A stretch of 24,351 nt of DNA from Coleofasciculus sp. C1-SOL-03. Lineage in GTDB: Bacteria > Cyanobacteriota > Cyanobacteriia > Cyanobacteriales > Coleofasciculaceae. Location of the stretch: NCBI GenBank assembly GCA_040220555.1, contig JAVJUO010000224.1; one strand, given 5' to 3'. The notes beneath the pieces were generated by a model, which saw only the letters and a program-made list of their open reading frames with translations, was not told the origin of the DNA and did not search any database. Shown here piece after piece: positions 20,845 to 21,837 of the stretch. Position numbers and translations under genes: made by a program. How positions within the stretch are numbered: position 1 is the stretch's first letter; every line of letters begins with the position of its first letter.

Positions 20845-20970
20845 GCTAACGCGCAAGTCAAAAAAGCCGTTGGTTCATACACGGGAATCGAACCCGCGAC
20901 ACATCGATTTCCAGTCGATTGCTCTACCAGTGAGCTAGTATGTAAGCTTTTTCAGTTTGGGCGCGTTAGC
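20845..20970 (-). ncRNA. Y-RNA-like unit B (126 nt) with a linear-order tRNA-like module, anticodon-like loop CUGGAAA
   Basis: Minus strand: terminal helix GCUAACGCGC.../...GCGCGUUAGC. Interior: UACAUAC-UA-GCUC ACUGGUA GAGC-A-AUCGA CUGGAAA UCGAU-GUGUC-GCGGG UUCGAUU CCCGU-GUAUGAA-CCA. Confidence 0.7.
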
Positions 20971-21006
20971 GCTCTTTATTTCTTCGGGCAAAATTGAATG
21001 GATGAA

Positions 21007-21134
21007 TCACTTCGCGCAAGTTAAAAAAGCCGTGAGTCATACGCAGGATTTGAACCTGCATGATCTTGAGCCTAAATCAAGCGCCTTTTCCATTCGGCTA
21101 GTATGTAAGCTTTTTCGGTTGGGGCGCGAAGTGA
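21007..21134 (-). ncRNA. Y-RNA-like unit C (128 nt) with a linear-order tRNA-like module, anticodon-like loop UUUAGGC
   Basis: Terminal helix UCACUUCGCGC.../...GCGCGAAGUGA. Interior: UACAUAC-UA-GCC GAAUGGAAAA GGC-G-CUUGA UUUAGGC UCAAG-AUCAU-GCAGG UUCAAAU CCUGC-GUAUG. Confidence 0.7.
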
Positions 21135-21158
21135 ATTTCAACACTGGCAAATAAAGAT

Positions 21159-21280
21159 AGCACTACGCACTCTAGTTAGGACAAATGAATAAAAAATTAA
21201 ATCGCTTAATCCCTTGATGAGTAAGCCTTTTTCTTCACTATTGCCTATTGCCTATTGCCCATTGCCTGGCGCGTAGCGCT
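21159..21280 (-). ncRNA. Degenerate Y-RNA-like unit C' (no tRNA-like module; stem invaded by heptamer repeats), possibly a pseudogene
   Basis: 10-bp terminal helix AGCGCUACGC/GCGUAGUGCU. Recognisable remnants of the boxes remain (CGCGCC...GAAAAAGGCUUACUC and UUUUUUA...AACUAGAGUGCG). (GGCAAUA)n is inserted in the 5' arm and UUCAUUUGUCC in the 3' arm. Confidence 0.4.
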
Positions 21281-21287
21281 ATAAGAG

Positions 21288-21441
21288 ATATCCCGCGCAA
21301 GTTAGCAAAGCTATATTACTTGGCGCTCTACCCTTGAGCTACAGACCCCTTAAAAGTGGATCTGGTGGGATTTGAACCCACAACCTCCCGCGTTAAAAGG
21401 CGGAACAGTATGTAAGCTTCACAAGTAAGGGCGCGGGATAT
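21288..21441 (-). ncRNA. Y-RNA-like unit D (154 nt) with a permuted tRNA-like module (loop-capped acceptor stem)
   Basis: Terminal helix AUAUCCCGCGC/GCGCGGGAUAU. Interior order: UCCGC CUUUUAAC GCGGG (anticodon-like arm, 8-nt loop)-AGGUU-GUGGG UUCAAAU CCCAC (T-arm)-CAGAUCC ACUUUUAAG GGGUCUG (capped 7-bp acceptor)-UA-GCUC AAGGGUA GAGC (D-arm). Confidence 0.7.
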
Positions 21442-21524
21442 TGAATGCTATATTTTAGACGTTGGATTGAAGGAAATTTGGTAAACTTACCGTTATTTGT
21501 ACTCATCCAAAATCTGAGTGGATT

Positions 21525-21665
21525 GGGGCGATCGCGCAAGTCAAAGCAGCTTGTTTTTTTACACCTCTCCCAGAGGCGGAGAGGGCAGGAATCGAACCTA
21601 CAATCTGAGTTGAAGTCAGATGTTACCAGTTTGTAAGCTGCTTCAGTTGGGGCGCAATCGCCCCC
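21525..21665 (-). ncRNA. Y-RNA-like unit E (about 140 nt) with a permuted, partly degenerate tRNA-like module, anticodon-like loop CUUCAAC
   Basis: Terminal helix GGGGCGAUUGCGC/GCGCGAUCGCCCC. Interior: ACAAACUGGUAAC-AUCUGA CUUCAAC UCAGAU-U-GUAGG UUCGAUU CCUGC-CCUCUCC GCCUCUG GGAGAGG (capped 7-bp stem). No clear D-stem. Confidence 0.65.
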
Positions 21666-21686
21666 GTAAATCTCGCGATGTATTGA

Positions 21687-21837
21687 GTGGGAATTCGCGC
21701 AAGTTCAAAAAGCGGTTTGTGTTTCTGAGCTACTCCCCCAAACAGTGGGGGAGAAAGGATTTGAACCTTTGCCAGTTCGATTATCAATCGAATGCTCTAC
21801 CGTTTGTATGCTTTTCTAGTCAGGGCGCGAATTCCAC
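21687..21837 (-). ncRNA. Y-RNA-like unit F (151 nt) with a complete tRNA cloverleaf circularly permuted at the D-loop, anticodon-like loop UUGAUAA
   Basis: Terminal helix GUGGAAUUCGCGC/GCGCGAAUUCCCAC. Interior: GGUA-GAGC-A-UUCGA UUGAUAA UCGAA-CUGGC-AAAGG UUCAAAU CCUUU-CUCCCCC-A-CUGUU-U-GGGGGAG-UA-GCUC-AG. The GCUC/GAGC D-stem forms across the permutation point. Confidence 0.7.

Follow-up and report, generated by a model that had tools for sequence, protein, structure and literature searches.

A probable array of Y-RNA-like noncoding RNAs with linear and permuted tRNA-shaped domains beside a divergent Ro60-like gene in Coleofasciculus

Known Y RNAs and the Coleofasciculus locus

Bacterial Y RNAs are known as tRNA mimics. 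They are encoded beside rsr and act in trans; among them, YrlA is found next to Rsr and mimics a tRNA whose acceptor is capped (PMC4201824), with a canonical topology that runs from the T arm through the capped acceptor to the D arm (PMC4201824; 10.1101/312249). The YrlA of M. smegmatis, with an acceptor of 7 bp, is a substrate of RNase P and of the CCA-adding enzyme, and an origin from dimeric tRNAs has been proposed for such RNAs (PMC4201824; 10.1101/312249). In cyanobacteria, Chen et al. (2014) recorded "relatively few" YrlA RNAs, located beside TROVE-annotated proteins (PMC4201824). Here, we describe a locus of Coleofasciculus sp. C1-SOL-03 (contig JAVJUO010000224.1) within a stretch of 24,351 nucleotides (nt), hereafter the window, to which coordinates refer unless a related locus is named. 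Its minus strand carries six RNA units between positions 20503 and 21838, in the transcription order F-E-D-C-B-A. This region most probably represents a six-gene array of Y-RNA-like noncoding RNAs that forms a module with a protein of 66 amino acids (aa) and a divergent Ro60-like protein, and the locus has the appearance of an enlarged version of the bacterial Ro/Y-RNA system that has so far not been described. In the searchable literature, which yielded YrlA, Yrn1, and permuted tRNA genes, we found no description of such cyanobacterial arrays, of linear full-cloverleaf Y RNAs, of a break point in the D loop, of this protein clade, or of the 66-aa partner.

The three parts of the module follow each other on the same strand: a 66-aa open reading frame (ORF), the RNA array, and, directly downstream of the array, the gene for a 493-aa protein (18964 to 20445, minus strand). 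The last had no match in Pfam, NCBIfam, PADLOC, or PHROGs, and no Pfam family, TROVE (PF05731) included, appeared even at an E value of ≤10. As a single sequence searched against the PDB, it gave a weak match to two TROVE domain entries (E = 0.003), in which DKSGSM, the metal ion-dependent adhesion site (MIDAS) of its vWA domain, aligned with DVSGSM. The top seven PDB matches returned by Foldseek for an AlphaFold2 (AF2) model of the protein, built on 46 homologs (predicted local distance difference test [pLDDT] score of 76.8), were all Ro60/TROVE structures aligned over the full length (500 to 547 columns; E values from 5.5e-10 to 5.5e-07; template modeling [TM] scores of 0.50 to 0.63; 14 to 18% identity). 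These structures were of Ro60 from Xenopus, from humans, and from a Thermus phage, as well as of a TROVE domain; all matches of lower rank were bare vWA domains. In the predicted fold, a helical-repeat ring is followed by a vWA domain with its MIDAS (LVDKSGSM), the arrangement that characterizes Ro60/TROVE proteins. The assignment of a Ro60-like fold therefore comes from the Foldseek matches of the model, according to which the protein is Ro60-like in fold, yet outside the reach of the TROVE profile. Because the gene adjacent to the array, on the same strand, has this predicted Ro60/TROVE fold, we consider Y RNA the right frame for the units. At least 3120 homologs of the protein were found; among the best 120, every named source was cyanobacterial or cyanobacteria-related, and most were labeled hypothetical or vWA. 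The Ro60/Y-RNA system would be extended in this way to a large cyanobacterial protein family, and a conserved 66-aa partner would be added to it.

All six units are closed by a common stem (the Y stem), which is long and imperfect. Its 5' strand reads GCGCCC-YRAC-(5 variable nt)-AAGC-UUACAUAC, and its 3' strand reads AAnCAAC-R-GCUU-(variable)-RACUUGCGC. Two parts are invariant, namely, an internal loop with CC-YR-AC opposite ACUU, beside a GCGC/GCGC helix, and the segment AAGC-UUACAUAC/AAnCAAC-R-GCUU, both identical whichever domain the unit carries. The internal-loop columns had zero entropy across 59 aligned linear units (see below). Outward, the stem is extended by 6 to 10 unit-specific, covarying base pairs, such as GGAAUUC/GAAUUCC in unit F and GCUAAC/GUUAGC in unit B. 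Five of the six units (B to F) carry a tRNA-shaped domain in which the elbow nucleotides are kept (GG in the D loop, UUCRANY in the T loop, U8, and U33), and this domain is connected to the Y stem at one of three places: the acceptor stem (B and C), between the D and anticodon stems (D), or the D loop or D arm (F and E).

Linear and permuted tRNA-shaped units

A preliminary description of the region had placed the tRNA segments of units B (20845 to 20970, cloverleaf at 20873 to 20944) and C (21004 to 21139, cloverleaf at 21038 to 21105), both on the minus strand, in their normal order inside the Y stem. This was borne out by the sequence, by the Rfam tRNA model, and by ARAGORN, and the covariation presented below agrees with it. 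Unit B reads UACAUAC-UA-GCUC/GAGC-AUCGA[CUGGAAA]UCGAU-GUGUC-GCGGG[UUCGAUU]CCCGU-GUAUGAA. The Rfam tRNA model scored 53.9 bits (E = 2e-10) on B and 48.6 bits (E = 7e-09) on C, above its gathering score of 29 bits, which was also exceeded by F (31.8 bits, partial match) and not reached by E (18.4 bits). ARAGORN called B "Ser(gga)" (loop CUGGAAA) and C "Leu(tag)" (loop UUUAGGC), each with a 5-nt variable loop, so that the tRNA searches suggested as a check did recognize both units; the Rfam YrlA model gave a partial match on D. The acceptor-like UACAUAC/GUAUGAA, A/U-rich and with an A-A mismatch, is the same in all linear units whatever the anticodon and was invariant across 60 aligned units. Its end is embedded in the Y stem in B and C, while the ends of D to F are capped by a loop. 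An ACCA had also been pointed out after unit B. It is present (GUAUGAACCAACGG) but not conserved, and we rejected it as a relic of CCA: it is a variant of the conserved internal-loop motif AAnCAAC(A/G), found in all unit types and varying among units (ACUCAC, AAACCAC, AACAAAC, and others).

The nearest precedent for B and C is Yrn1 of Deinococcus radiodurans (PMC4201824), which likewise has D- and T-type elements in linear order, with an anticodon-like arm between them, and a Ro-binding stem. However, the D features of Yrn1 are incomplete, its "anticodon loop" has 6 nt, and it lacks a variable arm, whereas B and C are full cloverleaves scoring 49 to 54 bits. Within 80 linear units of related loci, ARAGORN made 73 tRNA calls. 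Genome annotations probably count linear units as tRNA genes, and units called tRNA by standard tools will inflate cyanobacterial tRNA counts.

Units D, E, and F, also on the minus strand, are permuted, and each has the 7-bp capped acceptor that had been proposed to follow its T arm (CAGAUCC/GGGUCUG, CCUCUCC/GGAGAGG, and CUCCCCC/GGGGGAG, respectively). In unit D (21288 to 21441, core at 21325 to 21405), the Y stem leads into an anticodon-like hairpin with the 8-nt loop CUUUUAAC, from which AGGUU connects to the T arm; the capped acceptor comes next, and then UA and an entire D arm. The Rfam YrlA model aligned with the T arm, capped acceptor, and D arm (model positions 24 to 84) at 34.5 bits (E = 2.5e-05), the gathering score being 69. 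Unit E (21525 to 21664, core at ca. 21564 to 21628) runs from the Y stem through UGGUAAC, a 6-bp hairpin (loop CUUCAAC), a linker of 1 to 2 nt, and the T arm to the capped acceptor, and resembles F without any D stem. Unit F (21686 to 21838, core at ca. 21727 to 21801) is a complete cloverleaf circularly permuted in the D loop (anticodon-like loop UUGAUAA), on which the Rfam tRNA model matched at positions 9 to 63 (E = 2.7e-04). Minimum free energy (MFE) folds reproduced the exits that had been drawn for the Y stem. In F, it leaves by way of the D loop, and the D stem is split, with its GCUC strand located after the acceptor and UA and the pairing GAGC strand ahead of the anticodon arm, while in D, it enters at a break point between the D arm and the anticodon arm. 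Once un-permuted computationally, 24 of 29 D- and F-type sequences were called tRNA by ARAGORN, all five of the F type among them.

The cap loops start with ACU in D, GCC in E, and ACU in F, which had been taken as a vestige of the discriminator plus CCA. Among 46 cap loops of the family, 38 started with a purine, 33 with purine-C, and 32 with purine-C-pyrimidine, so that the latter start is indeed frequent, but the RCC that such a vestige implies occurred in 9 of 46. With exactly 7 bp, the capped acceptors of D, E, and F may be candidates for opening by RNase P and addition of CCA, by analogy with the YrlA of M. smegmatis. A mimic of the T arm and acceptor and a permuted gene order in cyanobacteria are also features of transfer-messenger RNA (tmRNA), including its two-piece permuted form. 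However, unit D scored 23.4 bits against the tmRNA model (gathering score of 47), with a match confined to the T arm and acceptor, and the units have no mRNA-like frame, pseudoknots, or free alanine-accepting end.

Given that the Rfam YrlA model aligns with the T arm, capped acceptor, and D arm of unit D, the capped, "permuted" order is the canonical YrlA order. What remains unusual is that linear cloverleaves are present, that each tRNA-like unit has a full anticodon arm, and that F is broken in the D loop. As in YrlA (RF02553), the units are noncoding RNAs beside a Ro60-type gene on the same strand, with a long closing stem and conserved elbow nucleotides, and the YrlA order is found in full in D, with a split D stem in F, and without the D stem in E. 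In B and C, by contrast, the order is the reverse one and thus linear. An anticodon loop is absent from YrlA, where the counterpart of the anticodon stem is formed by the 5' and 3' strands and leads to the Ro-binding stem, whereas D, E, and F have a closed anticodon-type hairpin, and the connection is found here at position 26/27 (D), at the D loop or arm (F and E), or at the acceptor stem (B and C). The locus also differs from those of YrlA in its arrays of up to 6 to 7 units, in its conserved 66-aa ORF, and in a partner missed by Pfam TROVE.

Like YrlA loci, which have several Y RNAs including a small one without a tRNA-like domain, the array contains a unit of this kind. Unit A (20503 to 20582, minus strand), which corresponds to YrlB, is the gene-proximal unit and, by sequence and fold, consists of the Y stem closing a 5-bp hairpin, UUACC-CUGUCAC-GGUAA. 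In 37 of the 91 arrays of the survey described below, the gene-proximal unit is short. Some relatives (designated here by L numbers, with positions after the colon) have the canonical YrlA-like form without an anticodon hairpin (L005:3073, L014:3279, L047:2776, and L115:3518). A further unit family has the same Y stem and a non-tRNA-like core, ...CUCUCCACC...GGUGCGUAUCUGGAGGGAUACGCUGCAAGCCUG...CAGGC, in which a pseudoknot is possible. Its members (L036:3810-3925, L020:3723, L042:630, L047:3535, L087:3750, L094:3798, L097:3733, L104:3800, L110:3303, L112:519, L116:3783, and L118:3743) are, in most of their loci, the unit closest to the Ro-like gene.

That B and C pass Rfam and ARAGORN and that un-permuted D and F sequences are called tRNA raises the alternative of real tRNA genes, ordinary in B and C and permuted in D, E, and F, which would be processed to decoding tRNAs with the long stem as a processing signal. 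Permuted genes that mature to normal tRNAs are found in red and green algae and in one archaeon (10.1101/312249; review, PMC3978253), and they share with the units a 3' half that comes first, a loop-closed acceptor, and termini that pair elsewhere; besides, long tRNA arrays adjoin the module in some loci. However, such genes mature through a bulge-helix-bulge endonuclease and circularization, and no bacterial splicing endonuclease is known (10.1101/312249). The units here have no consistent anticodon or identity features and are tied to a Ro-like gene, one A/U-rich acceptor, which contains an A-A mismatch, is common to all linear ones, loop lengths of 4, 6, and 8 nt were observed, a D stem is missing from E, and the invariant stem motif is also present in unit A, without a tRNA-like part. 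Bacterial tRNA-Ser and tRNA-Leu have long variable arms, unlike the "Ser(gga)" and "Leu(tag)" bodies, which are of class I and have 5-nt variable loops. In addition, the anticodon changed among strains with 97 to 98% identical Ro-like proteins. Neither a consistent combination of body and anticodon nor an anticodon conserved among orthologs, both expected of decoding tRNAs, was found. We consider it unlikely that the units are decoding tRNAs, and we give real tRNA genes as an explanation of the array hardly any weight.

Conservation, covariation, and variable anticodon-like loops

In order to put the Y-RNA-like units into perspective, the array was compared with a sample of 38 genome loci, 80 metagenome loci, 6 extra contigs, and 7 loci from a viral collection (IMG/VR). 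A motif-based finder, applied to the strand of the gene only, detected 256 units in 91 of 119 sources, in arrays of 1 to 7 upstream of the Ro-like gene. A previous scan had covered both strands, and 111 of its 111 units were on the strand of the Ro-like gene. The linear type was the most abundant (ca. 80 units), followed by the D type (ca. 25 to 30), the E type (ca. 15), and the F type (5 distinct sequences, from Coleofasciculus, a Xenococcaceae metagenome-assembled genome, and Aphanothece), in addition to YrlA-like and short units. A topology-specific regular expression, with the six extra contigs included, found no F-type unit beyond these five. Besides Coleofasciculus, the unit types were conserved in Xenococcaceae, Aphanothece, Moorena, and relatives from metagenomes. 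Spacer length varied from 346 to 2892 nt. Linear and permuted topologies were found together in 34 of the 91 arrays, so that their coexistence at one locus, singled out as unusual in the preliminary description, holds both here and in relatives, as does the picture of a small library of distinct tRNA mimics in a common Y stem. The usual order was permuted units, then linear ones, then a short unit beside the gene. In locus L130 (48% protein identity), D-type and linear units share the stem GCGCCAUAAC...CAACUUGCGC, and both topologies are present.

Covariation across the orthologous arrays, another of the checks suggested for this region, supported the proposed helices, with some weak points that are gathered below. 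In the linear units (n = 60, aligned with MAFFT), 91% of the cells were paired, versus 29 to 50% in slid controls. Double-sided changes were found in 5 of 5 pairs of the anticodon stem, 3 of 5 of the T stem, and 2 of 4 of the D stem, as well as in the Y stem (6 of 10 pairs of the lower helix, that is, the flank extension plus GCGC, and 4 of 9 of the middle stem). In the D type, the capped acceptor, T arm, and D arm were 100% paired in an unfitted alignment, with 6 of 7 acceptor pairs changed on both sides (6 to 7 of 7 across unfitted and fitted alignments). Its anticodon hairpin was 92% paired in frame-anchored constructs, a percentage inflated because the parser had required pairing, and 5 of 5 pairs covaried. 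For the E type (14 orthologs), 99% of the cells were paired and 2 hairpin pairs covaried, while the acceptor, nearly invariant and also 99% paired, had no double-sided change. In the F type (5 orthologs), 95.4% of the cells were paired, versus 35 to 54% in slid controls. The split D stem was 100% paired, with one compensatory change (C-G to U-A in L006), and two more were found in the acceptor.

These data bear on whether the units might be tRNA pseudogenes in decay, or else a repeat or mobile element that derives from tRNA and has no function of its own. Such an origin would be in line with the presence of other repeats in the region (heptamers at ca. 21237 to 21268 and an inverted repeat at ca. 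20600 to 20745), with the variation of unit number and content among strains, and with the insertions seen in some units. However, compensatory changes keep the helices across genera, the unit types persist from Coleofasciculus to Xenococcaceae, Aphanothece, Moorena, and metagenomic relatives, and the units kept to the strand of the gene (111 of 111 in the both-strand scan) and, in the gene-strand scans, to the interval that the same two genes delimit. Since the changes are compensatory and the units keep their position and strand, we do not regard them as decaying repeats, and the probability left to this explanation is very low.

Several observations weigh against the interpretation of the locus as a Ro60-like protein with Y-RNA-like RNAs. 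The Ro60 assignment comes entirely from a predicted fold, with 14 to 18% identity and a TM score of ca. 0.6, and a profile of the 493-aa protein searched against PDB sequences gave no significant match (E = 0.48). The motif GNCGAAN0-1G, proposed as the Ro60 contact near the 5' end of bacterial Y RNAs, was found in 2 of 256 units, as often as after shuffling and thus at chance level, and the Rfam YrlA gathering score (69) was reached by no unit in the window or in 18 related loci. In addition, some of the covariation of the D and E types was scored on constructs that had been chosen because they pair, the junction helix UACU/AGUA of D was 50% paired in relatives and was kept as tentative, and the F-type evidence comes from 5 sequences.

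The anticodon-like loops of units B to F all agree with those first reported, including the 8-nt loop of D and the 6-bp stem of E. Across the 59 aligned linear units, positions 34 to 36 were the most variable columns (1.6 to 1.8 bits, 22 triplets), while U33 was conserved (0.34 bits), as were the GG of the D loop and the T loop. The UUUAGGY loop of the unit C type recurred in 10 of these 59 units, at many loci, and the loop of unit B was CUGGAAA, CUUGAAA, or CGGUAAA among near-identical strains. In strains with Ro-like proteins 97 to 98% identical to that of the window, loop columns varied in 6 of 28 cases versus 37 of 455 elsewhere (P = 0.03). This excess is modest and is suggestive of a weak signal of diversifying selection, compatible with relaxed constraint. 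In three relatives from three genera, the E-type loop was replaced by a GNRA tetraloop (GCGA or GCAA), which argues that the triplet is not essential for that unit type. We also observed, post hoc, that the 5 nt UUAGG within the unit C loop UUUAGGC are complementary to CCUAA in the consensus stem loop GCGCCCUAAC, present in unit A.

In a functional interpretation that starts from the preliminary description, the units would be a collection of decoys or sensors, directed at tRNA-related activities such as those of anticodon nucleases, of modification enzymes, or of tRNA-targeting toxins from phage or host. Each loop would mimic a different tRNA, and the Ro60-like protein would hold the units or respond to their cleavage. 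Positions 34 to 36 being the most variable next to a conserved U33 would fit with this, along with loops that differ between strains with 97 to 98% identical Ro-like proteins, module relatives on IMG/VR contigs and beside long tRNA arrays, and the link of Salmonella Ro/Y-RNA operons to tRNA damage (according to PMC7790460). However, relaxed constraint could also account for the modest loop excess, GNRA tetraloops take the place of E-type loops in three genera, loops of 6 and 8 nt occur as well, the linear units have one acceptor-like stem in common, PADLOC was negative for both proteins, and no conserved nuclease or ligase was found among the neighboring genes listed. We regard a decoy library as a tentative possibility. 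A more elaborate proposal, which we find doubtful, is that of a programmable tRNA-surveillance or counter-defense device. In this device, a Ro60-like ring would bear exchangeable complete tRNA mimics, whose hypervariable loops (U33 kept, positions 34 to 36 free) would select the tRNA-directed nucleases, modification enzymes, or even cellular tRNAs (by loop-loop pairing) to be captured, the three topologies would expose the acceptor end, the elbow, and the anticodon free of the scaffold, and the module and long tRNA arrays would move together on mobile or viral DNA.

For the Ro/Y-RNA interpretation that we prefer, the analogy with described systems suggests that the invariant stem would dock on the Ro60-like ring and that each unit might tether the Ro60-like protein to factors that recognize the tRNA shape, or compete for them. 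A weak consensus scan of the minus strand found no promoter- or terminator-like consensus inside the array and a single promoter-like site upstream of the 66-aa ORF. The array might be co-transcribed with its flanking genes as one transcript, which would then be cleaved at the foot of each long stem to release the units. The three topologies would be explained most simply if sequences had been captured from tandem tRNA transcripts on independent occasions, each time with a different break point. This fits with the differing break points, with D-loop remnants that flank the stem on both sides at L036:3012, and with the adjacent long tRNA arrays, and the break points themselves (acceptor, 26/27, and D loop) bear on the proposed origin of Y RNAs from tandem tRNA transcripts. 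The same putative docking stem, cloverleaves at three attachment points, and units without a tRNA part together provide a natural, near-ready structure-function series, in a system physically linked to long tRNA arrays and viral-collection contigs.

The leader region, the 66-aa protein, and neighboring genes

The array occupies the 5' region ahead of the Ro-like gene, and no terminator consensus separates the two. It could instead act in cis, as a leader controlling how the Ro-like mRNA is translated or how stable it is, e.g., by sensing tRNAs or the protein itself. Along similar lines, a hairpin GCCUCC...GGAGGU, read from the sequence of the 5' untranslated region (20450 to 20475, minus strand), would sequester the ribosome-binding site of the Ro-like gene. 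The arrangement UGCCUCC...GGAGGU recurs in L005, L028, L029, L032, L036, and L037, which include other genera. However, the spacer of 346 to 2892 nt and the number of units (1 to 7) vary widely, every unit is a self-contained stem with its own covarying extension, and known Y RNAs beside rsr act in trans (PMC4201824). We consider a cis-acting leader highly improbable. The start of the Ro-like coding sequence (ca. 20416 to 20430, minus strand; AERDLR, GAACGCGACUUGCGU) matches the 3' Y-stem motif GACUUGCGC. Relatives have synonymous variants in this segment (GACCUGCGC in L007), which suggests that the constraint acts at the protein level.

Directly upstream of the array, the 66-aa ORF (...RPEAVYG) is located at 21858 to 22058 on the minus strand. 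In 77 of 131 loci, including 5 of the 7 IMG/VR contigs (32 to 42% identity), tblastn located it upstream of the Ro-like gene and on the strand of that gene. We obtained 857 homologs, and all but two of the 120 listed had a length of 66 aa, with an invariant C-terminal YG in the alignment. The homolog in Coleofasciculus chthonoplastes PCC 7420 is MC7420_4652. An AF2 model (pLDDT score of 91.7) has the order strand-strand-helix-helix-helix-strand-strand followed by a flexible tail. There was no significant PDB or Pfam match, the best one being a PB1/ubiquitin-like fold (E = 0.28), which gives a hint of a beta-grasp fold in the predicted structure. Neither the 66-aa nor the 493-aa protein was matched by PADLOC. 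Among the ORFs of the window and six loci with listed genes, we found no conserved nuclease or ligase and no rtcBA genes.

Several loci have ordinary tRNA arrays (4 to ca. 25 genes) directly upstream of the module and on the same strand (L036/L086:93-1942, L097:40-2161, L104:53-1158, L116:14-2450, L118:43-3227, and L091:52-765). Dense same-strand tandems of tRNA-type genes are also known from the long tRNA arrays of filamentous cyanobacteria (Santamaria-Gomez et al. 2021, PMC8421152), but the members of those are ordinary tRNAs without a Y stem, and a term search of that article gave no occurrence of "tRNA-like," "VWA," or "downstream." Comparison of the tRNA-like cores with the tRNAs of neighboring arrays gave no more than generic similarity (0.73 to 0.81 identity). 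In the IMG/VR contigs, the viral nature of which is taken from the collection label alone, homologs with 43 to 48% identity are preceded by the 66-aa ORF plus many tRNAs and tRNA-like units.

In some units of related loci, the T loop contains an insertion of ca. 24 to 30 nt with two mini-hairpins, e.g., GUAGG-U[ACCCUUCGGGAACGCCUACGGCGAA]CGAGU-CCUAC, which is similar across unit types and genera (L001:2702-2864, L003:2768-2930, L030:1292-1454, L036:2350-2519 and 2750-2909, L023:86-244 and 471-609, L026:1258-1417 and 1637-1774, L095:2359, L099:397, and L111:2166). It could be a small element targeting T loops or a functional expansion. Regarding the spacers in the window, a nested G+C-rich inverted repeat, GUAGGGGCGACCCG...AGGGCGGGUUU...AAACCCGCCCCUAC...CGGGUCGCCCU, is located between units B and A (ca. 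20600 to 20745), where the spacer ranges from ca. 275 to ca. 690 nt among Coleofasciculus strains. Between units D and C (ca. 21237 to 21268), there is a tandem heptamer repeat (GGCAAUA/GGCAAUG, minus strand) that resembles the short tandem repeats common in filamentous cyanobacteria. Finally, the Moorena locus L021 has a 23S rRNA fragment (positions 1077 to 1160, 54.5 bits) just downstream of the Ro-like gene (L021:5548-5630), and three loci have genes for ribosomal protein L12 (L120:3414-3803, L121:3270-3671, and L124:994-1374), just upstream of the Ro-like gene in two of them and ca. 2.6 kb upstream in the third. These neighbors probably reflect synteny with the rplKAJL operon and its leader.

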